64,000 nucleotides of DNA, from the sequence record ON528742. The stretch is one strand, 5' to 3'. A program made the position numbers and the translations under genes. Positions 3,168 to 44,402 of this stretch are shown one piece after another. Under the pieces are notes generated by a model. It was not told where the DNA came from and did not search any database. It saw only the letters and a program-made list of their open reading frames with translations. This DNA is from Shigella phage ESh32. The first letter of the stretch is position 1, and the number at the start of each line of letters is the position of its first letter.

Positions 3168-3185
3168 AAGGGGCTTCGGCCCCTT
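3168..3185 (+). terminator. GC-rich hairpin AAGGGGC-TTCG-GCCCCTT
   Basis: perfect inverted repeat with TTCG loop after stop codon. Confidence 0.6.
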
Positions 3186-15673: not shown

Positions 15674-15679
15674 ATTCAA

Positions 15680-15703
15680 GGACTCCTTCGGGAGTCCTTT
15701 TTT
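15680..15703 (+). terminator. intrinsic terminator GGACTCC-TTCG-GGAGTCC plus T6
   Basis: perfect 7-bp stem, TTCG loop, T-run. Confidence 0.8.
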
Positions 15704-26034: not shown

Positions 26035-26295
26035 ATGAAATATGTTAATCGTTCTATCGCAGCATTAGTATTAGCAGTATCTTTAGTAGGATGTACTGAT
26101 GCTGATAATGCAACCAAAGTTTTATCTTCAAGTGGTTTTACTAATATTGAAATCACTGGATATAATTGGTTTGGTTGTTCTGAAAATGATTTCCAACATA
26201 CTGGATTTCGTGCTATTGGACCTACTGGGCAGAAAGTAGAAGGAACCGTGTGTTCTGGTCTATTCTTCAAGGATTCGACTATCCGTTTTAAATAA
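26035..26295 (+). CDS. predicted lipoprotein (86 aa)
   Basis: signal peptide with lipobox LVGC; followed by hairpin. Confidence 0.55.
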   Translation: MKYVNRSIAALVLAVSLVGCTDADNATKVLSSSGFTNIEITGYNWFGCSENDFQHTGFRAIGPTGQKVEGTVCSGLFFKDSTIRFK

Positions 26296-26364
26296 AAGGC
26301 CTTCGGGCCTTTAGCTTTATGATTGCCGGAGTATAATATTCCCGAAACCAAACGAGGATAAGTG

Positions 26365-28182
26365 ATGATTAAGAATGAAATTAAAATTCTGAGCGATATT
26401 GAACATATCAAAAAGCGTAGTGGCATGTATATTGGCTCTTCTGCTAATGAAATGCATGAGCGCTTTCTGTTTGGTAAATGGGAAAGTGTTCAGTATGTAC
26501 CTGGTCTTGTTAAGCTTATTGATGAAATTATCGATAACTCAGTAGATGAAGGTATTCGTACTAAGTTTAAATTCGCAAATAAAATTAATGTTACTATTAA
26601 AAACAATCAAGTAACAGTTGAAGATAACGGTCGCGGTATTCCACAGGCGATGGTTAAAACACCTACCGGTGAAGAAATTCCTGGTCCTGTTGCTGCATGG
26701 ACTATTCCAAAAGCAGGTGGTAACTTTGGTGATGATAAAGAACGTGTCACCGGTGGTATGAATGGTGTTGGTTCTAGTTTAACTAACATTTTTTCTGTGA
26801 TGTTTGTCGGTGAAACTGGCGATGGTCAAAATAATATTGTAGTTCGTTGTTCAAATGGCATGGAAAATAAATCCTGGGAAACTATTCCAGGAAAATGGAA
26901 AGGAACCCGTGTTACTTTCATTCCTGATTTTATGTCATTTGAAACTAATGAGCTGTCCCAAGTTTATCTTGACATTACACTAGATCGTCTCCAGACACTT
27001 GCTGTTGTTTATCCTGATATTCAATTTACTTTTAATGGTAAAAAGGTTCAGGGCAATTTTAAGAAATATGCACGACAGTATGATGAACATGCTATTGTTC
27101 AAGAACAAGAAAATTGTTCTATTGCGGTTGGTCGTTCACCGGATGGTTTTCGTCAATTAACTTACGTGAATAACATTCATACTAAGAATGGTGGCCATCA
27201 CATTGACTGTGTTATGGATGATATTTGCGAAGACCTTATTCCACAAATCAAACGTAAATTCAAAATTGATGTAACTAAAGCACGCGTTAAAGAATGTTTG
27301 ACTATCGTTATGTTTGTTCGTGATATGAAAAACATGCGATTTGATTCTCAAACTAAAGAGCGTTTGACTTCTCCATTTGGCGAAATTCGTAGTCATATTC
27401 AGCTTGATGCTAAAAAGATTTCACGCGCTATTCTAAATAATGAAGCAATTTTAATGCCGATTATTGAAGCTGCTTTAGCACGTAAATTGGCGGCAGAAAA
27501 AGCAGCAGAAACTAAAGCAGCTAAAAAGGCTTCTAAAGCTAAGGTTCATAAACATATCAAAGCGAATCTTTGTGGTAAAGATGCTGACACTACTCTTTTC
27601 TTGACTGAGGGTGATTCTGCTATCGGATATCTTATTGATGTTCGTGATAAAGAACTTCATGGTGGTTATCCATTGCGCGGTAAAGTTCTTAATAGTTGGG
27701 GTATGTCATATGCTGATATGCTTAAAAACAAAGAACTATTTGATATTTGCGCAATCACTGGATTAGTTCTTGGTGAAAAAGCTGAAAACTTGAATTATCA
27801 TAATATTGCTATTATGACCGATGCTGACCATGATGGTTTAGGAAGCATTTATCCTTCTCTGCTCGGATTTTTTAGTAATTGGCCAGAACTGTTTGAACAA
27901 GGAAGAATTCGCTTTGTCAAAACTCCTGTAATCATCGCTCAGGTCGGTAAAAAACAAGAATGGTTTTATACAGTCGCTGAATATGAGAGTGCCAAAGATG
28001 CTCTACCTAAACATAGCATCCGTTATATTAAGGGACTTGGCTCTTTGGAAAAATCTGAATATCGTGAGATGATTCAAAACCCAGTATATGATGTTGTTAA
28101 ACTTCCTGAGAACTGGAAAGAGCTTTTTGAAATGCTCATGGGAGATAATGCTGACCTTCGTAAAGAATGGATGAGCCAGTAG
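26365..28182 (+). CDS. 39: topoisomerase II large subunit gp39, undivided (605 aa)
   Basis: GHKL ATPase plus Toprim in one ORF; C-terminus equals T4 gp60 region. Confidence 0.93.
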   Translation: MIKNEIKILSDIEHIKKRSGMYIGSSANEMHERFLFGKWESVQYVPGLVKLIDEIIDNSVDEGIRTKFKFANKINVTIKNNQVTVEDNGRGIPQAMVKTPTGEEIPGPVAAWTIPKAGGNFGDDKERVTGGMNGVGSSLTNIFSVMFVGETGDGQNNIVVRCSNGMENKSWETIPGKWKGTRVTFIPDFMSFETNELSQVYLDITLDRLQTLAVVYPDIQFTFNGKKVQGNFKKYARQYDEHAIVQEQENCSIAVGRSPDGFRQLTYVNNIHTKNGGHHIDCVMDDICEDLIPQIKRKFKIDVTKARVKECLTIVMFVRDMKNMRFDSQTKERLTSPFGEIRSHIQLDAKKISRAILNNEAILMPIIEAALARKLAAEKAAETKAAKKASKAKVHKHIKANLCGKDADTTLFLTEGDSAIGYLIDVRDKELHGGYPLRGKVLNSWGMSYADMLKNKELFDICAITGLVLGEKAENLNYHNIAIMTDADHDGLGSIYPSLLGFFSNWPELFEQGRIRFVKTPVIIAQVGKKQEWFYTVAEYESAKDALPKHSIRYIKGLGSLEKSEYREMIQNPVYDVVKLPENWKELFEMLMGDNADLRKEWMSQ

Positions 28183-28450: not shown

Positions 28451-30628
28451 ATGATTATCACCACTGAAAAAGAAACAATTCTTGGTAATGGTTCTAAATC
28501 AAAAGCATTTAGCATCACAGCATCTCCTAAAGTATTTAAAATTCTGTCATCTGATTTGTATACAAACAAGATTCGTGCAGTAGTCCGTGAATTGATTACC
28601 AACATGATTGATGCCCATGCACTCAATGGAAATCCTGAAAAATTTATCATTCAAGTTCCTGGACGTTTAGATCCACGATTTGTTTGCCGAGATTTTGGTC
28701 CGGGTATGAGTGATTTTGATATTCAGGGTGATGATAATTCTCCTGGTCTGTATAATTCATACTTCAGTTCATCTAAGGCTGAATCTAACGATTTCATTGG
28801 CGGATTTGGTTTAGGTTCTAAATCTCCGTTTAGTTATACTGATACATTTAGTATTACTTCGTGTCATAAAGGTGAAATTCGTGGTTATGTAGCTTACATG
28901 GATGGCGATGGTCCACAAATTAAACCTACATTCGTGAAAGAAATGGGTCCAGATGATAAAACTGGTATTGAAATCGTAGTTCCAGTTGAAGAAAAAGACT
29001 TTAGAAACTTTGCTTATGAAGTTTCTTATATCATGCGACCGTTCAAAGATATGGCTATTATTAATGGTCTTGACCGTGAAATTGATTATTTTCCGGATTT
29101 TGATGATTATTACGGTGTAAATCCAGAAAGATACTGGCCTGATCGTGGTGGATTATATGCTATCTATGGCGGTATTGTTTATCCTATCGATGGTGTTATT
29201 AGAGACCGTAACTGGCTAAGCATTCGCAATGAAGTGAATTACATTAAGTTTCCAATGGGTTCACTTGATATTGCTCCATCACGTGAAGCTCTTTCATTGG
29301 ATGATCGTACTCGTAAAAATATTATTGAACGAGTTAAAGAGCTTAGTGAGAAAGCATTTAATGAAGATGTAAAACGATTTAAAGAATCTACATCTCCCCG
29401 TCACACATATCGTGAATTGATGAAGATGGGGTATTCTGCTCGAGATTATATGATTAGTAATTCAGTCAAATTCACGACTAAAAATCTGTCATATAAAAAG
29501 ATGCAGAGCATGTTTGAACCTGACAGTAAGTTATGTAATGCAGGCGTGGTGTATGAAGTAAATCTTGACCCTCGACTGAAACGCATTAAGCAAAGCCATG
29601 AAACTTCAGCCGTTGCATCAAGTTATCGTCTGTTTGGTATTAATACAACAAAAATTAATATCGTTATTGATAATATTAAAAATCGTGTTAATATTGTCCG
29701 TGGATTAGCACATGCGTTAGATGATAGTGAATTTAATAACACTTTAAATATTCATCACAATGAGCGTCTTCTGTTTATTAATCCGGAAGTAGAATCGCAG
29801 ATTGATTTACTACCTGATATTATGGCAATGTTTGAAAGTGATGAAGTTAACATTCATTATTTGTCAGAAATTGAAGCTTTAGTTAAAAGCTATATTCCAA
29901 AGGTAGTTAAAAGTAAAGCTCCTCGTCCTAAAGCTGCTACAGCATTTAAATTTGAAATTAAAGATGGACGATGGGAAAAAGAGGAACTATTTACGCTCAC
30001 ATCAGAAGCAGATGAAATTACTGGTTATGTAGCGTATATGCATCGTTCTGATATTTTCTCTATGGATGGTACTACATCGCTTTGTCATCCATCTATGAAT
30101 ATTTTGATTCGTATGGCTAATCTTATTGGCATTAATGAATTTTATGTTATTCGTCCGCTTTTACAGAAAAAGGTAAAAGAACTCGGTCAGTGCCAATGTA
30201 TTTTTGAAGCTTTGCGTGATTTATATGTAGATGCTTTTGATGATGTAGATTATGATAAGTATGTAGGTTATTCAAGTTCAGCTCAACGATATATTGATAA
30301 AATTATCAAGTATCCTGAGCTAGATTTTATGATGAAGTACTTCAGTACAGATGAAGTTTCTGAAGAATATACACGACTCGCTAATATAGTTAGTTCATTG
30401 CGCGGTGTATATTTTAATGGTGGAAAAGATACCATCGGTCATGATATCTGGACAGTAACTAATCTTTTTGATGTATTATCAAATAATGCTTCAAAAAACA
30501 GTGATAAAATGGTTGCTGAGTTTACCAAGAAATTCCGTATTGTTTCCGACTTCATCGGATATCGCAACTCTTTAAGTGATGATGAAGTTTCCCAAATCGC
30601 TAAAACTATGAAGGCCCTTGCGGCCTAA
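28451..30628 (+). CDS. rIIA: rIIA protein
   Basis: 725 aa; synteny 39-rIIA-rIIB. Confidence 0.92.
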
Positions 30629-30639
30629 TAAGGAAAATT

Positions 30640-31578
30640 ATGTACAATATTAAATGCCTGACCAAAAACGAACAAGCTGAAATTGTTAAACTGTATTCAA
30701 GCGGTAATTATACTCAGCAGGAATTGGCTGATTGGCAAGGTGTATCGGTTGATACAATCCGTCGTGTTTTGAAAAATGCTGAAGAAGCTAAACGCTCTAA
30801 AGTTACTATTAGCGGTGATATTACAGTTAAAGTTAATAGCGATGCAGTTATTGCTCCAGTTACTAAATCTGACATTATTTGGAATGCATCTAAAAAATTC
30901 ATTTCGATTACTGTCGATGGTGTAACTTATAATGCAACACCTAATACTCATTCAAACTTCCAGGAAATTCTCAATCTGCTTGTAGCGGATAAGCTGGAAG
31001 AAGCGGCACAAAAAATTAATGTTCGTCGCGCTGTTGAAAAATATATTTCCGGCGATGTTCGAATTGAAGGTGGAAGCTTATTCTATCAAAATATTGAATT
31101 GCGGTCTGGTTTGGTTGATCGTATTCTTGATTCGATGGAAAAAGGCGAAAACTTTGAATTTTATTTTCCGTTCTTGGAAAATCTGCTGGAAAACCCAAGC
31201 CAGAAAGCGGTATCTCGACTTTTTGATTTCTTGGTAGCAAACGATATTGAAATTACAGAAGATGGTTACTTCTATGCTTGGAAAGTAGTTCGCAATAATT
31301 ACTTTGACTGTCACTCAAATACCTTTGATAACAGTCCTGGTAAAGTAGTTAAAATGCCGCGTACTCGTGTGAATGACGATGATACACAAACTTGTTCTCG
31401 TGGTCTGCATGTGTGTTCTAAATCTTATATTCGTCACTTCGGTGGTTCAACCAGCCGAGTTGTAAAAGTTAAAGTTCATCCTCGTGATGTAGTATCAATT
31501 CCGATTGATTACAACGACGCTAAAATGCGTACCTGCCAATACGAAGTAATTGAAGACGTTACTGAACAATTTAAATAA
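30640..31578 (+). CDS. rIIB: rIIB protein
   Basis: 312 aa; AAGGAAAATTATG start region. Confidence 0.9.
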   Translation: MYNIKCLTKNEQAEIVKLYSSGNYTQQELADWQGVSVDTIRRVLKNAEEAKRSKVTISGDITVKVNSDAVIAPVTKSDIIWNASKKFISITVDGVTYNATPNTHSNFQEILNLLVADKLEEAAQKINVRRAVEKYISGDVRIEGGSLFYQNIELRSGLVDRILDSMEKGENFEFYFPFLENLLENPSQKAVSRLFDFLVANDIEITEDGYFYAWKVVRNNYFDCHSNTFDNSPGKVVKMPRTRVNDDDTQTCSRGLHVCSKSYIRHFGGSTSRVVKVKVHPRDVVSIPIDYNDAKMRTCQYEVIEDVTEQFK

Positions 31579-31592
31579 GGGCTTCGGCCCTT
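31573..31592 (+). repeat. 20-bp direct repeat copy 1 with hairpin AAGGGCTTCGGCCCTT
   Basis: identical to 31801-31820. Confidence 0.8.
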
Positions 31593-31606
31593 AACTAAGG
31601 AAAATT

Positions 31607-31801
31607 ATGTTAGGTTATCAAGCACGAGTAAAAGAAGAATACGATCAATTAATGCTCAAAATTAATGCACTGAGCAAATTTTTAGAAAGCGCAAAGTTTC
31701 TAACGGTTAGTGCAGTTGAGCAAGAACTGCTGCTTTCACAGTTCATCTCAATGAAATCTTATGCTGAGTGTCTAGAGAAAAGAATCGCACAATTCAAATA
31801 A
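31607..31801 (+). CDS. hypothetical protein (64 aa) bracketed by identical hairpins
   Basis: ORF ends QFK-stop like rIIB. Confidence 0.5.
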   Translation: MLGYQARVKEEYDQLMLKINALSKFLESAKFLTVSAVEQELLLSQFISMKSYAECLEKRIAQFK

Positions 31802-31820
31802 AATAAGGGCTTCGGCCCTT
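31801..31820 (+). repeat. 20-bp direct repeat copy 2 with hairpin
   Basis: identical to 31573-31592. Confidence 0.8.
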
Positions 31821-31864
31821 TTGTTTTAAGAGAAATTATGATTCCGACATAAAGGAAAGTCTAA

Positions 31865-32422
31865 ATGCAGAAAACGAATCCAGGTTTACAGAGACTATTT
31901 CAGATTCCGTCATTTACCCTATCGAACGGTGACTTGACCAATGAAATGAAGGTCAAAATTGCTGATACTGCAAGATACTCTTTAAAACAAAACCCGAACC
32001 AGGATAAAGCAGAAGTTATCGAAAGATGCCGTATCGCTGTGTACGCAGAGTTTTTTGTGGCAGATTGGCTAAGCGGATATGTCAATAAAGGCCAAGAAAA
32101 TGTCGATGATCCGTACACGTATGCATGGGATGTTTTAGCGCATCCAAAATATTGCGGGCTTCGTGTAGAAGTCAAAACACATCAAACTGACTCGCGTTGG
32201 ATTTCGGTAACAACGGGATGCAGCGGAGAGTATCCATATGGTTCTGGAATAAATTTAGGGCCCATTCTAAATCATCAAGTCGCTGACTGTATAATTATAT
32301 TCAACACTAAAGAAATTCATCCAGGTGTCATCCAGTACACTCCGAAGTTCATCGGTGACAGAGAAGACCTTCGTAAGGTTGTAAGAAAAAGCAACTACAA
32401 CGGATGGTATCTTTCCATTTAA
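31865..32422 (+). CDS. denB: endonuclease IV DenB
   Basis: 185 aa; synteny after rIIB. Confidence 0.75.
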   Translation: MQKTNPGLQRLFQIPSFTLSNGDLTNEMKVKIADTARYSLKQNPNQDKAEVIERCRIAVYAEFFVADWLSGYVNKGQENVDDPYTYAWDVLAHPKYCGLRVEVKTHQTDSRWISVTTGCSGEYPYGSGINLGPILNHQVADCIIIFNTKEIHPGVIQYTPKFIGDREDLRKVVRKSNYNGWYLSI

Positions 32423-32438
32423 AAATTTTCACAAAACG

Positions 32439-32468
32439 GTTTACATACCACAAGGACTGTGGTAATAT
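32439..32468 (+). promoter_or_regulatory. early promoter (GTTTAC, 18 bp, TAATAT)
   Basis: consensus hexamers. Confidence 0.6.
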
Positions 32469-32502
32469 ACAACTATCAACTGATACGGATTTGGAGAATA
32501 AA

Positions 32503-32709
32503 ATGTTTACTACAGCTGAATTAAAACGAGCAAAAGCTAAGAAAGGGCAAGGAAAATATAAAGCTGAATTAGTTAAAGAACTTCAGTTTGCTGAGGCTGA
32601 ATTGAATTCAATGATTATTCAAAATGCTCCAGAAACTGAAATTGCTCTTAAACGTATTGCGAATAAGTGTCTTCGTGATGCAATCGTCGATCTTTTAGCG
32701 GATTATTGA
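32503..32709 (+). CDS. hypothetical protein (68 aa)
   Basis: ATG after conserved leader GGAGAATAAA. Confidence 0.5.
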   Translation: MFTTAELKRAKAKKGQGKYKAELVKELQFAEAELNSMIIQNAPETEIALKRIANKCLRDAIVDLLADY

Positions 32710-34152: not shown

Positions 34153-34232
34153 TGAGTAATTTCCACAACGAACACGTGATGCAGTTCTATCGTAATAATC
34201 TTAAAACTAAAGGCGTCTTCGGACGCCAGTGA
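34152..34232 (+). CDS. stp: Stp peptide (26 aa)
   Basis: [26 protein letters not shown] recognised as T4 Stp. Confidence 0.8.
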
Positions 34233-39552: not shown

Positions 39553-40329
39553 TTATACTCTTGGACCATATATTGCTCCAACATTTATCCACGTTGGAGC
39601 AGACCCTATAACAGCATAACCAGCATCGCCGCCATTATATTCAGATCCTTGACCGCGAATATTGCATCTACCTCCCGCGGAACCTACTTCACCACCGTTT
39701 CCACCATTATAGATACCATTCACGGATCCTGAGCCAGGTGCAGAAATAGTACCGCCAGTCGCTCCTGATTGCATATCAATAGATCCGCCAGGTGCACCAA
39801 ACGGACGCCCACCGCCGCCGCCAAAGGTCAATCTCATTTGTGAAAAAGGAGAATAATATCCGCCGCCGCCGCCGCCACCGCCGCCTGCAATAGCTCCACC
39901 ATTATTAATTCTTAGTCTCCCACCAATATCGTTTTGAATACAATGACCTCCAGCTGAGCCAGGACTATTGCTACCGCCATTACCGCCACGACCATACATC
40001 GTTACGCCGTGTATATTCAACTGAACATATTCATTGGGTGTATCTCCATACATGAAGAATAAAGGAACATCTTTAGAATATGATACTAAATCTCCAGTGA
40101 TATTAAACACTATAGGTGCACTACCTGCCTCAAAACATCTATCTCGGAACCATTGACCATTGAAGTTATGGTCTGCTCCAAGCGTGTGAATTATTTCAAC
40201 AGATCGACCTATCATATTACTCATCCAAAACGGAATTCCCATTCTCAATCTCTGCGCGGCACCACCCATCCAATTTTGTCCTGTATTAACTACTGCAGAC
40301 GATCCTACCCACGGTCCTGTTACTGCCAT
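39553..40329 (-). CDS. 38: tail fibre adhesin gp38, T2/T6 type with glycine-rich motifs
   Basis: 258 aa from ATG after GGAGG; poly-Gly blocks separated by variable segments. Confidence 0.85.
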
Positions 40330-40360
40330 ATAAACCTCCAAGGGGCCGAAGCCCCTCTTA

Positions 40361-43300
40361 TTATTTTAACAATGATTTAACTAATGCTTTAAGTTCTTCA
40401 ATTTCTGATTTAAGTTCCGCAATTTCTGCAGTATGCTCATTGATTGCAGCTGTATTTAAACCAATTACACCGTTATAGTTCAAACGAAGTAAAGCTTCAC
40501 CATCCGGGTCGCCTTCAACTAATTCTGGTAAAATAGCTTGAACTTCTTGAGCAATTAACCCAGCGTTTGGTTCCCATTTCTGATTGCCTTCTTCGTCCGT
40601 TCCACGTTTCTGCATATAAGTGTAACCGTTAATTTTAGAAAGCTTCTGAGAAGCATTTTCAAATTTAACGAGGTCTTTTTTAACACGAATATCAGAACGG
40701 ACATAAACATCACGGACAAACGTTGAATAACTATCATTTGCCTGAACGAGATGCCCATGAGAAACGATAGCTCTTCCAACTTCTGTCCAAAAAGCACCGG
40801 TTGAATCCCAAAGCCCAGGATGAGATTGATAGCCTGCTCCCCAGTTTGCAATATGTATACCATTGGCAACCATATTGATTCGGCCGTCACCGCCATGAAC
40901 TAACCCAGTGTCATTATCACCAATAACAACGCATGCGCCTGTCCATGCAGGGTCACCTCCACCAGCTGATAATCTTACTCCAGCTTTAACCATGTCAGGA
41001 ACGTACATGTTTCCATTATGGTGGAATTCGAAGATAGCTTGCGGATCGCTAGCATTTTCCTGATTACCTACACGGATAATACCTTGTGCCCAGTTATTAG
41101 TAATGCGTCGCATACCGAAATCAACACCAGATACGTACCCTTCATTAGTAATAACAGATTTTCCTTTAATAATAGGATAATAGCAGTCATTGCCGACACT
41201 ACCAAAATCCACAAATATAGGAGCTTCTTGATGCCATTGGTTTCCCCAGTCACCAGCTTGATGCGCAGTCCATTGAGTCCCATTTATATGGAGACGATCG
41301 CGGTTAAAGTTAAATGTTGCAGCACCTTGTGGAATCAGCGCGATTTCACCAGTAGAGTTAATTTGCACAGCCCCATTGGTTTTATAGTTGTAGAATGATA
41401 CGGTATTATCAGCGCCGCCTTTACCAATATACCATTGATTTTCTCCACCGCCAGTAGAAAGAAGGTAGCTTGCATCAGTCGCTGAAGGCGCAGCTAAGTT
41501 AATAGCATCAGAATCTCTTCTAATAATCAACTTGCCGGTCATCGTGTCGCCTTCTTTCGAAACACGAGTCGCAATAGCATCGCGAATATTAGTTACGTCG
41601 CCAGCTGAAGTAAACGTTTTCCAGATATCAGACCAGATATTACCATTGCGAGCAATAGTAGCTTCACCGCCGCCGACAGCAACGTTATCTGGGAAGTTAA
41701 CAGTACCGTCTTGATTAAAACGAGACGTATGGCCTTGTGAACCATCTTCTTTCAGATGATGAATAACGAATGTACCCGAATTAATTTCAGTACCTAAAGA
41801 CCAAACGCATTTACCGTTTAAGAATTTCTGTTTAACAATAGGATAATATTTGCTTACAGCATCATCATCGATTTCCTGGAAAATAGGAGCCGCTTGAGCA
41901 TATTGAATGTCATAACCGCCGGCACCCGCTCCATGACCAACAAATTTAATATAACCGTTAGCAGCGAACGTATTGTAACTTGATTGTAAATCTGGAATAG
42001 TAACTTTACCAGTATCTAAAGCCATACTAAACGGGCGAAGTGGACCGATATCGCCGTGTTTACCTTCACCGTAAGCAGTTGGAATAATATGAAGACTACC
42101 TTCTGAACGTCTAAAAATGGCTCCATAATCTGCGTTCCAAATACGAAGCGCATTCACTGCTCCAGATGAAATTTCGCCTGTTGTGTGAACTCCTCTATTT
42201 CCAGCAGTAACACCAGATGATTCAAATGAACCGTTAACGTTCATTTCTACTTCACCTGTTGTAAGTCTTTGAATATAGCTCATCCAACTAGTTGCATCAG
42301 AAATTTCCATGACATTTTTACGATTACCTACGCTAGGATTAGTAAACGTATTGCCCCAAACGGAAATTGTCATATTATCAACTGAACTGCTACCAGTTGT
42401 GTTACCTCTAAACAACAGCGTAGAAGAATTATTTCTACCATCGATATTAACCGAACCACCAATAACGTCAATATTGCCTGGAGTAACTAACAAACCGCCA
42501 TGAGTATTAATGTTTGTGGTACCCTTACCGCGGAAATAGTGATGATAGTTACCGCCTTGATAATATCCTAAAAGAGTTTGACCGTCGCCGTATGCGTTAT
42601 TATCATGGTAAGTAACAACAGTGGCCAAAGCATAGTTTTCTGTCGGCGGCGTTGTCATAAGAATCCCGTCCGGAGAATAACCCATAACCATTTTTCTAAG
42701 GCTTTGTGTTTCCGCAGGGCCGTAGATGAAAGTTCTTGTTCCATTGTTTACTGTATGAAAATATCCGTCCTGATGCCATTTAAATCCGGTGTCATTATCA
42801 CCAAGAGCAATTGAGGCCGTTCCTAATTCAGAATATCCTTTAGAGCCACCCGGAAGACCTACAGAAATAGAATGACCGGCTTTCAATCCACCTGACCAGG
42901 TAAACGACCAAAGATATGCGTCAAGTCCATCTCCAGCATACCAAGTTATTCCATCATTATCTTTAACTTCATGGAAAATGCCAGAACCGACTGCATTACG
43001 CATAATACGGAGATGGTTAATAGCCGTTTCGCTTTCTGTCAATGGAGTGTTATTTGCTAATGAATAGATATCATAATCTCCTGTCTTCTTCCCATTTGTA
43101 ATAACTTTGTCGGTCAGAATTTGCGGAGACGAAATAGATTTCCATGCTGATACTTCGGGTGAAGTAAATAGGCCACTGCCTGAAAATGCATAAGTGCTTT
43201 CGCTACCAGCGGCGTAGTCTTGAACCCTGATATTAAGTACTTGTGTAGTTAAACCATCATTAGCCGGGGCATAAATGATTCCACGTTCGCGACTATTGCC

Positions 43301-43675
43301 ATCGAAAAAACGAACATGCGCTGTACCTGAGCTTTTTGTAATAAGTTCTCCGCCTTCAGTCATAATTTGCCCGGCGGCAATAATATCGCGAGTTACTCGA
43401 GCAATACCAGTTAAATTAAAATTACCTGTCTGAGTGAAGGTGCCATTTAAAGTATAATCGCCAGTTTGGTTATAATTACCTGTATGAATAACATTCCCGT
43501 CAATACTACCGCCTTTAGCAAAACCCAGATCAATAATATTTCCTTGGTCATCTTTAGTAAAAAGTACACGGTCTTTTAAGTTTATAGCCAATTCACCTTC
43601 GGCTAATACTGAAGCGGCAGGACGTGCTCCTGCAGTTTTGCTTCTTTTAAATTGTATTTGTTTTAAAGTAGCCAT
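40361..43675 (-). CDS. 37: long tail fibre distal subunit gp37 with C-terminal chaperone-like domain
   Basis: 1104 aa; C-terminus [15 protein letters not shown]... plus coiled coil. Confidence 0.9.
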
Positions 43676-44371: not shown

Positions 44372-44379
44372 AAGAAAAA

Positions 44380-44397
44380 GGGAACCCGAAGGCTCCC
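44380..44397 (-). terminator. hairpin plus U-run after gene 35
   Basis: GGGAGCC-TTCG-GGTTCCC with one mismatch, then T-run. Confidence 0.55.
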
Positions 44398-44402
44398 TCA
44401 AT

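Follow-up and report, generated by a model that had tools for sequence, protein, structure and literature searches.

Twin C(UUCG)G hairpins beside the T4 gene denB.1 in the rIIB-denB interval of Shigella phage ESh32

Sequence comparison identifies the 64-aa ORF between rIIB and denB of Shigella phage ESh32 as denB.1, a known gene of phage T4; the twin hairpins beside it are ordinary members of the T4 family of UUCG stem-loops located after stop codons. The arrangement is very likely the punctuation of a T4 early unit around a resident denB.1, with no recent cassette insertion or duplication of the rIIB end. The gene, the T4 CUUCGG hairpin type, and even both "putative terminators" are already known from the literature or from GenBank annotations. 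The window analyzed here is a stretch of 64,000 nucleotides (record ON528742) from a Tequatrovirus, with 100% identity to Shigella phage ESh34. The features of the locus are listed in Table 1.

Table 1. Features of the rIIA-denB region, in window positions (TIR, translation initiation region)
Feature	Position	Strand	Basis and remarks
Hairpin AGGCC-CTTGC-GGCCT	30612..30626	+	Inverted-repeat scan; in last rIIA codons; first of three successive "hairpin + TIR" junctions
rIIB TIR TAAGGAAAATTATG	30629..30642	+	Exact 14-mer, same as denB.1 TIR
rIIB, 312 aa	30640..31578	+	ORF; annotated rIIB in T4 and relatives
20-nt repeat copy 1 AAATAAGGGCTTCGGCCCTT	31573..31592	+	Exact match; holds last sense codon and stop of rIIB
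Hairpin 1 UAAGGGC-UUCG-GCCCUUA	31576..31593	+	Fold and conservation; rIIB stop codon within stem
denB.1 TIR TAAGGAAAATTATG	31596..31609	+	Exact 14-mer
denB.1, 64 aa, PF21825 / PHROG 774, predicted two-helix hairpin	31607..31801	+	ORF, profile matches, model
20-nt repeat copy 2 AAATAAGGGCTTCGGCCCTT	31801..31820	+	Begins at final base of denB.1 stop
Hairpin 2 AAGGGC-UUCG-GCCCUU with U-rich tail UUGUUUUA	31805..31828	+	Terminator scan, fold; intrinsic-terminator-like
Relic TIR (TAAGAGAAATTATG) and 4-codon stump (ATGATTCCGACATAA) of DUF7418 gene	31827..31853	+	Alignment to wV7/RB32
denB (endonuclease IV), 185 aa	31865..32422	+	ORF and annotation

Identity of denB.1

The ORF showed 98.4% identity to T4 denB.1 (AF158101) in tblastn and 98–100% identity across T4-group denB.1, and it occupies the orthologous position in the T4 annotation order rIIB-denB.1-denB. 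It matched PF21825 with E = 4.1e-19 and 68.7 bits (gathering cut-off 24.8; residues 4–61 on profile positions 3–60/61) and PHROG 774 with E = 1.9e-22. The predicted model was a helical hairpin with a pLDDT of 94.7 (single-sequence AF2). A Foldseek search of this model against the PDB returned generic helical hairpins only, none with E <= 0.001. The denB.1 profile gave no significant match to PDB sequences, and the literature search yielded no usable account of function for denB.1 or crAss001_48. We regard denB.1 with good confidence as a long-resident small helical protein that forms the independent Pfam family PF21825.

Hairpins of the T4 UUCG family

Both hairpins have the form GGGC-UUCG-GCCC with A-U extensions and a loop closed by C-G. 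The predicted folding energy was -10.9 kcal/mol for hairpin 1 (TAAGGGC-UUCG-GCCCUUA) and -9.9 kcal/mol for hairpin 2 (AAGGGC-UUCG-GCCCUU) folded alone, and -11.3 kcal/mol for hairpin 2 folded with its context. Five copies of the 12-nt core GGGCTTCGGCCC lie in the window, and no core is commoner in this genome. The window has ten C(UUCG)G hairpins whose stem is at least 6 bp long; eight of them start between -3 and +4 nt from a stop codon. With respect to the genes next to them, every one of the ten has its UUCG loop on the coding strand, including the two beside minus-strand genes. The first description of the UUCG tetraloop came from T4 mRNA (PMC4371310). Because the twin hairpins are ordinary members of this T4 family, they represent standard operon punctuation and not a freshly inserted or duplicated cassette. 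An Rfam scan of positions 30400–32600 gave two sub-threshold chance matches only.

Of 46 T4-like loci, 43 conserve the position of hairpin 1, and compensatory changes are present. Among 24 distinct sequences, 92% of cells were paired and six of seven pairs had changed on both sides, although these pairing statistics are inflated because the set consists of the best hairpin near each rIIB stop. A hairpin at the rIIA 3' end was also found in the lineages whose locus reaches there (Tequatro-, Mosig-, Dhaka-, Kanagawa-, and Marfavirus).

The TIRs of rIIB and denB.1 are identical over 14 nt, which hints at shared translational control of the two genes.

Terminator-like properties and proposed roles in mRNA

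The preliminary description had called both hairpins terminator-like. Both fold stably, and hairpin 2 (31805–31820) with its U-tract TTGTTTTAAG shows the stem-plus-U-tract organization of an intrinsic terminator. Hairpin 1, however, has no U-tract on the coding strand; it is followed by ACTAAGGAAA, with the denB.1 Shine-Dalgarno sequence 2 nt on. In the terminator scan, hairpin 2 passed on the plus strand and hairpin 1 was flagged on the minus strand only, where both hairpins scored as terminator-like. GenBank record MK327946 annotates hairpin 1 as a putative terminator, and both this record and KT184312 mark hairpin 2 as a terminator. A literature search found no usable T4 3'-end mapping. The nearest plus-strand promoter-like sites around denB lie upstream at 31328 and downstream from 32440, and none was detected on the plus strand at 31590–31865.

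The rIIB-denB.1-denB stretch most likely belongs to a T4-type early transcription unit punctuated by the two C(UUCG)G hairpins. Hairpin 1 overlaps the rIIB stop and is an ancient, structurally conserved post-rIIB stem-loop. Its role in the mRNA may be that of a fast-folding structural insulator or of an element that protects the 3' end; at most it may cause a weak pause, and it would not be a true terminator. Hairpin 2 is probably a partial intrinsic terminator (attenuator) after denB.1, because denB has no promoter-like site directly upstream and would be read through hairpin 2.

Distribution of denB.1 and the hairpins among T4-like genera

denB.1 was found in ~496 Tequatrovirus records compared to ~500 records holding its flanks, and it follows rIIB in at least seven other T4-like genera. 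The order rIIB-denB.1-DUF7418-denB was observed in seven other genera. In Dhaka-, Gapriver-, Kanagawa-, Marfa-, Moon-, and Winklervirus, the gene is syntenic with 46–58% protein identity, a divergence matching that of its neighbors. Judged from these records, denB.1 presence varies between genera only and is fixed within Tequatrovirus. The preliminary description had proposed comparing the rIIB-denB region across T-even phages, and presence or absence of denB.1 does vary among genera. It had also reasoned that a universal ORF with divergent flanks would make the repeats ordinary terminators. This is largely what was observed, as denB.1 is widespread and the flanking hairpins of other genera are unlike each other or number just one.

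The rIIB-denB interval is modular, and all four combinations of presence and absence of denB.1 and DUF7418 occur across T4-like genera. The DUF7418 gene is intact in wV7/RB32, and the wV7 ORF matches PF24193. The states of the interval were mapped on an rIIB tree, in which Mosigvirus is the sister group of Tequatrovirus. This comparative four-state map is a by-product of the analysis: loss of denB.1 always leaves one hairpin, and loss of DUF7418 leaves ragged stumps.

Recombination between direct repeats would leave exactly one hairpin in lineages that lack denB.1, and exactly one was found between rIIB and the next gene in RB69 and other Mosigvirus, in CC31-like phages, and in others without the gene. 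An alternative, which we consider unlikely, is that the hairpins mediate module loss like PeSLs without a promoter, the T4 recombination machinery looping out denB.1 as a deletion or mini-circle. RB69/Mosigvirus have the order rIIB-hairpin-U-tract-DUF7418 with no trace of denB.1 and a downstream flank like that of hairpin 2, and the same clean pattern recurs in the CC31-like loci L026–L029 and in L030. The DUF7418 gene, in contrast, is not followed by a hairpin, and its loss left ragged stumps at microhomologies. T4 deletes or amplifies between microhomologies of 6–10 bp (PMC9391042). PeSLs are promoter-early stem-loop cassettes of T4-like phages, as defined in PMC2839356 and PMC4122927 (Arbiol et al. 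2010; Comeau et al. 2014), and their stem-loops were shown to recombine and form mini-circles (PMC2839356).

However, a search of 50,697 phage records showed no Tequatrovirus with the predicted junction in one piece. The matches listed for precise-deletion queries of 523 nt and 85 nt were all in at least two pieces spanning denB.1, with no deletion junction; 16 records covered at least 80% of the 85-nt query, all in at least two pieces. The RB69 hairpin (GGGGAC/GTCCCC) is no recognizable hybrid of the Tequatrovirus hairpins, and selection for intact rIIB and the next gene gives clean-looking boundaries under any mechanism. Furthermore, hairpin 2 is missing after denB.1 in Dhaka-, Gapriver-, Kanagawa-, and Marfavirus, so that the ancestral two-hairpin state is uncertain. 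Loss of denB.1 by hairpin-hairpin recombination is possible but unproven.

More broadly, and speculatively, promoter-less UUCG stem-loop repeats might serve a minimal "SL-only" shuffling system as its recombination handles, so that denB.1 (a 228-nt unit) can be looped out as a deletion or mini-circle; we hold this to be doubtful. If true, it would explain why Mosigvirus, Karamvirus-like, and other lineages have repeatedly lost denB.1 cleanly, and why hairpin-plus-leader units (AAATAA-GGGCUUCGGCCCUU) are found at unrelated gene ends. It would also imply a deletion junction of the form ...CAATTTAAATAAGGGCTTCGGCCCTTTTGTTTTAAG...

Origin of the 20-nt identity

The exact copies of the 20-mer, each touching a stop codon, and the QFK ending of both proteins were confirmed, the latter from the ORF translations. 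The chance expectation for the 20-mer in shuffled sequence was 0.01 matches at no more than three mismatches, but a random-sequence null is unsuited to it, with the core repeated in the window and stop-codon hairpins being a genome-wide rule. The similarity of the QFK-stop ends does not run in the same register as the 20-mer. Allowing one 5-nt indel (an AAATA tandem repeat) gives the alignment ACAATTYAAATAA[AATAA]GGGCTTCGGCCCTT for the two junctions, with 27 of 28 positions identical compared to 20 of 20 for the repeat alone. This identity exceeds that of every other hairpin-family pair within the 64-kb window. The exact repeat is just 16 nt in a recent T4 assembly. Among T2/T6-type relatives, the hairpin 1 spacer differs, some also with a UUUG loop, and hairpin 2 is unchanged; the two hairpins are therefore not in concerted evolution.

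The preliminary description had seen in the small ORF a duplication of the rIIB 3' end. Outside the repeat, the coding ends of rIIB and denB.1 share ACAATTY only, and this stretch is ancestral in each family, appearing as GCAC(A/G)ATTC in denB.1 of Kanagawavirus and as GAACAATTC in rIIB of Gaprivervirus. F63 is invariant across the denB.1 family, whose C-terminus is "...RIxxF", and the rIIB C-terminus is VTEQF in Gaprivervirus and Dhakavirus. As each of these ends is ancestral, the QF common to both proteins is a coincidence. The K-stop (AAATAA) of both genes is specific to Tequatrovirus and missing from the closest outgroups examined (Gapriver-, Dhaka-, Mosig-, and Kanagawavirus), which possibly reflects a local copying event. 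The 20-nt identity is most probably explained by shared family membership, this being the commonest stem in the genome, together with shared flank constraints (TAA stops, A-richness, and lengthening of the stem against U/T). An old local copying event is possibly a further contributor.

A stronger form of such copying would make hairpin 2 a local paralogue of hairpin 1, copied with its AAATAA leader onto the denB.1 end in the Tequatrovirus ancestor and replacing a tight denB.1/DUF7418 junction. This seems improbable to us, even though the high identity of the two junctions and the K-stop gained by both genes only in Tequatrovirus agree with it. It is also consistent with the four genera that have no hairpin after denB.1, whose ...ATTC-TGAGGTAATTATGAT junction aligns to the Tequatrovirus junction minus ~34 nt. 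However, a hairpin with a U-rich/ribosome-binding stretch precedes DUF7418 also in Mosig-, Karam-type, Moon-, and Winklervirus, which makes it at least as likely that hairpin 2 is orthologous across genera as that it was copied locally. One Winklervirus locus (L036) has the same AAGGGCTTCGGCCCTT there while its hairpin 1 differs, and the abundance of the core in the genome likewise counts against copying. The common K-stop as the mark of a copied unit was kept as a minor rival only, because these hairpins follow leaders rich in A and in stop codons whatever the lineage or reading frame, with for example a 25-nt identity to an unrelated Mosigvirus gene end.

That denB.1 is a recent inserted or duplicated cassette carrying or copying the rIIB 3' end is very improbable, although the preliminary description read a cassette insertion or duplication from the bracketing repeats and the shared QFK. 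Within Tequatrovirus the gene is fixed, seven other genera carry it in synteny at 46–58% identity, and it is an independent Pfam family; the similarity of its coding end to that of rIIB is short and ancestral. In partial support of that description, the repeats exist, the gene varies between genera, and a single hairpin is left where denB.1 is absent. An integron-like cassette was also considered; the neighborhood showed neither an integrase nor an attC-like site. Finally, it is scarcely conceivable that the palindromes act as DNA (cruciform, protein-binding site, or recombination hotspot) and not as RNA. In favor of such a role, the two strands of a perfect inverted repeat read alike, and both hairpins are terminator-like on the minus strand too. 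However, the UUCG loop is asymmetric and falls on the coding strand in every long hairpin of the ten, which leads us to reject this reading; in addition, the hairpins are located at stop codons, and their arms are just 6–7 bp.

Comparison with known systems

The ORF matches T4 denB.1 and PF21825 (crAss001_48-related protein) end to end on the family model, with no difference.

Similar to PeSLs, the locus lies in a plastic early region and has a small non-essential ORF with a repeated stem-loop at either end, and a comparative presence and absence of the ORF with a boundary at a stem-loop. An exchange of the neighboring ndd.4/ndd.5 between T4 and PST was ascribed to PeSLs (PMC4122927). The denB.1 unit differs in that only 13 nt (hairpin 1) and 18 nt (hairpin 2) separate the hairpins from the next ATG, with no promoter-like match, and in that denB.1 is fixed in the genus and is not an ORFan varying among close relatives. 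As there is no room for a promoter, the unit is not a PeSL.

Compared to Rho-independent terminators, hairpin 2 is alike in its G+C stem followed by UUUUGUUUU and would differ in having to be leaky, given denB downstream. Hairpin 1 differs in its coding strand without a U-tract.

Tuerk et al. reportedly described C(UUCG)G tetraloop hairpins between the cistrons of phage T4 in 1988. The present hairpins are alike in their C-G-closed UUCG loop, short G+C stem, sense orientation, intercistronic placement after stop codons, and high predicted stability. Identical hairpins around a small T4 gene should accordingly be read with caution, as default operon architecture and no evidence of mobility. There is no essential difference from the T4 type; these two are adjacent copies that share their stem and 5' leader.

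Identity of the small gene between rIIB and denB

Shigella phage ESh34 matched the window region at 100% identity and about 500 Tequatrovirus (T4-group) genomes matched it at 90-98%; comparison with the annotated T4 genome gave the gene order rIIA, rIIB, denB.1, denB. The 64-aa ORF can be assigned to denB.1, with 98-100% identity to the T4-group proteins. It matched Pfam PF21825 ('crAss001_48 related protein', E = 4e-19) far over the gathering score and belongs to PHROG 774, a function-unknown family. The single-sequence AlphaFold model was a confident two-helix hairpin (pLDDT 94.7) with only generic structural neighbours, and no solved structure related to denB.1 by sequence was found. Many matching GenBank records label denB.1 'endonuclease', and one (OR125554) 'Rz-like spanin'. 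Neither label is backed by Pfam or PHROG, and both look like transfers from the adjoining denB.

Directly upstream of rIIA, a single 606-aa ORF occupies 26362-28182. In T4, gene 39 is separated from gene 60 at this place; the single ORF suggests that here, as in other T-evens, the large topoisomerase subunit is uninterrupted.

The repeat belongs to a family of stop-codon hairpins

The 20-mer AAATAAGGGCTTCGGCCCTT occurred exactly twice in the window, with a three-mismatch relative at 969-988, against 0.01 matches in shuffles. Each copy was predicted to fold, at about -10 to -11 kcal/mol, into a hairpin with a UUCG tetraloop, hereafter hairpin 1 (at the rIIB stop) and hairpin 2 (after denB.1). 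Both the 312-aa and the 64-aa products ended in QFK. The preliminary description was therefore correct about the exact repeat and the shared QFK-stop. However, the QFK-stop similarity was out of register with the 20-mer: allowing a single 5-nt indel, the junctions align as ACAATTYAAATAA[AATAA]GGGCTTCGGCCCTT. A recent T4 assembly has an exact repeat of 16 nt.

Coordinates of the repeat copies, junction motifs and related hairpins in the window
Feature	Position	Strand	Remark
20-mer, copy 1	31573-31592		contains Lys codon and TAA stop of 312-aa ORF 30640-31578
20-mer, copy 2	31801-31820		starts at last stop base of 64-aa ORF 31607-31801
TAAGGAAAATTATG 14-mer, rIIA/rIIB junction	30629-30642		exact; rIIB translation initiation region (TIR)
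TAAGGAAAATTATG 14-mer, rIIB/denB.1 junction	31596-31609		exact; denB.1 TIR
TAAGGAAAATTATG, denB.1/DUF7418 relic	31827-31840		12/14; 14/14 in comparison locus L015
Other C(UUCG)G hairpins just past stop codons	970-991, 3168-3185, 15678-15699, 26295-26312, 34212-34227	+	
Other C(UUCG)G hairpins just past stop codons	40340-40357, 44378-44399	-	

The right null for the repeat is the hairpin family, because its core and UUCG hairpins recur beside stop codons. The 12-nt core GGGCTTCGGCCC occurred five times in the window (+ strand 975, 3171, 31579 and 31807; - strand 40343), and ten C(UUCG)G hairpins had stems of 6 bp or longer. In every one of the ten, also in the two next to - strand tail-fibre genes, the UUCG loop lay on the strand that codes for the neighbouring genes. 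Eight began -3 to +4 nt from a stop codon, so a stop-overlapping hairpin is a rule of this genome and not a scar. U-rich tails followed three of the ten; a Shine-Dalgarno sequence directly followed most others. The UUCG tetraloop was reportedly discovered by Tuerk et al. (1988) in T4 intercistronic CUUCGG hairpins. The first hairpin listed on the - strand lies between ORFs 40361-43675 and 39553-40341, probably genes 37 and 38, with GGAGG directly after it.

The shared QFK had been taken as a sign of a copied rIIB end. The denB.1 family ends in R-I-x-x-F-stop with F63 invariant, the Tequatrovirus end GCACAATTC aligning with Kanagawavirus GCACGATTC, and the rIIB end V-T-E-Q-F is followed by the stop in Gaprivervirus and by an extension in Dhakavirus. 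Thus, 'QF' was inherited independently in each protein; of the shared ending, only the K-stop (AAATAA) is specific to Tequatrovirus in the two genes. In every lineage these hairpins were preceded by TAAAT-type leaders, rich in A and in stops and lying in differing reading frames, and in about 150 Mosigvirus records an identical 25-nt AATTTAAATAAGGGCTTCGGCCCTT ended an unrelated gene that lies upstream of gene 39. Because of these recurrences, the leader appears to be a component of the hairpin, as stem extension or A-tract, rather than a stretch copied from rIIB. In Mosigvirus G2469 (L064), the exact match at 701-725 ends a 141-aa gene with F-K-stop and the same hairpin, there with a U-tract. 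At the orthologous site of the window (26286-26312), the sequence is TTTTAAATAA in another frame and the stem is GGCC/GGCC.

Distribution of denB.1 and the hairpins across genera

The rIIB-denB interval was taken from T4, wV7, Kha5h, RB69, SP18, PEi20, F48, IME523, IME540 and Gravdalen, together with 50 IMG/VR loci anchored on denB, and rIIB, denB.1, the DUF7418 gene and denB were located in each. denB.1 lay immediately 3' of rIIB in Tequatro-, Dhaka-, Gapriver-, Kanagawa-, Marfa-, Moon- and Winklervirus and in one further lineage (L050). Its protein was 46-58% identical to that of the window in the genera compared, comparable to the neighbour denB (40-72%); this identity level and the synteny fit vertical descent. 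With denB.1 in about 496 Tequatrovirus records versus about 500 with the flanks, the gene can be regarded as effectively fixed there. The gene is therefore not the inserted or duplicated rIIB end first proposed, being fixed in Tequatrovirus and following rIIB in many genera. What did stand is the modularity of the interval from genus to genus, with the hairpins marking the module boundaries.

All four combinations of denB.1 and DUF7418 occurred: both genes; DUF7418 only (RB69 and other Mosigvirus, CC31-like L026-L029, L030/L031); denB.1 only (T4, the window, L050); and neither (L035, L037, L038 and others). A tetraloop hairpin followed rIIB in 43 of 46 loci, irrespective of the next gene. Its stems varied by compensatory changes (GGGC/GCCC, GGGGAC/GTCCCC, GGAGGC/GCCTCC, GGGCC/GGCCC, GGAGAC/GTCTCC). 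With the best local hairpin chosen per locus, a caveat on these figures, 92% of alignment cells were paired and both partners had changed in 6 of 7 pairs; slid controls collapsed.

The post-denB.1 hairpin was patchy. It was present in Tequatrovirus, Winklervirus, L050 (loop GCAA) and Moonvirus and missing in Dhaka-, Gapriver-, Kanagawa- and Marfavirus, where denB.1 adjoins the DUF7418 gene. In Winklervirus L036 it was the same AAGGGCTTCGGCCCTT as in Tequatrovirus, with hairpin 1 as AAGGAGAC/GTCTCCTT; the Gravdalen (Winklervirus) stem was GGCC/GGCC. In Moonvirus-like L032-L034, rIIB and denB.1 overlap (TAATG) with no hairpin between, and the sole hairpin of the interval follows denB.1, a mirror image of Dhaka-, Gapriver- and Kanagawavirus. 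Loci without denB.1 retained exactly one hairpin, then a U-rich stretch and the DUF7418 start: the RB69 junction is GGGGACTTCGGTCCCC-TTTTTTCTTTAGGGGTAATTATGATT, and its wV7 equivalent after hairpin 2 is ...CCCTT-TTGTTTTAAGGTGAATTATGATT.

Within Tequatrovirus, the hairpin 1 spacer varied (ATCGCAT, ATCACAT, ATCATAT; two also with a UUUG loop), and hairpin 2 kept UUCG and its own tail in genomes with variant hairpin 1. The two hairpins show no concerted evolution. The T4 reference (L001, NC_000866) is one G short in hairpin 1 (AAGGCTTCGGCCC) and one C short in hairpin 2 (GGGCTTCGGCCTTTT); a newer T4 assembly (L062, OZ035787) and all relatives keep both bases. Compression artefacts of early sequencing in G+C hairpins probably account for both gaps.

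Loss of DUF7418 and denB.1

At 31827-31864, ATGATTCCGACATAA is the 4-codon stump left of a DUF7418 (PF24193) gene of 109 aa (compare L002 1210-1539), which wV7/RB32 have in intact form. In T4-type phages the gene has lost about 214 nt, and in the window and Kha5h a further 22 nt; both deletions are flanked by short direct repeats (AAAAG[AG]AA and TGATT). The 3' part of the gene survives in its overlap with the long form of denB.

Occasional deletion of denB.1 from hairpin to hairpin seems rather unlikely, though it has points in its favour. T4 recombination works on 6-10 bp microhomologies (PMC9391042), so 20-nt direct repeats are ample. Mosigvirus is the sister of Tequatrovirus on the rIIB tree, and denB.1 loss is always clean with one hairpin left, whereas DUF7418, a gene without a 3' hairpin, was lost raggedly through nested deletions at short direct repeats. 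However, selection that keeps the flanking genes intact would leave equally clean boundaries. Two synthetic queries for a precise deletion of denB.1 had no one-piece match in 50,697 phage records, and so gave no recombinant junction.

Proposed roles of the two hairpins

No + strand promoter-like site was found between 31355 and 32440; therefore, transcription of denB.1 and denB would have to start upstream and run through both hairpins. Hairpin 1 holds the rIIB stop inside its stem, lacks a U-tract and has a Shine-Dalgarno sequence 2 nt downstream. It probably acts as an mRNA structural element, either a fast-folding intercistronic insulator, a 3'-end protector after processing, or both. Hairpin 2 has the canonical intrinsic terminator layout (A-tract, stem and UUUUGUUUU). 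It would be leaky by necessity, and thus a putative attenuator ahead of denB. The design of a hairpin followed by TAAGGAAAATTATG occurred at three successive junctions. The rIIB initiation region is a classical RegA operator, and the identical denB.1 TIR may share RegA control.

Comparison with known systems

The gene denB.1, the hairpin class and the terminator annotation are already known; both hairpin sites are 'putative terminators' in GenBank (MK327946, KT184312). The closest described system to the repeats is the promoter-early stem-loop (PeSL) cassette of T4-like phages, a stem-loop with an early promoter repeated around ORFans, for which recombination and mini-circles were shown (PMC2839356, PMC4122927). 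Unlike PeSLs, the window hairpins leave only 13 and 18 nt to the next ATG, and denB.1 does not vary between close relatives; the absent promoter space and this constancy rule out PeSLs. The window hairpins instead belong with the intercistronic CUUCGG hairpins of T4, the class from which the UUCG tetraloop first became known (PMC4371310).
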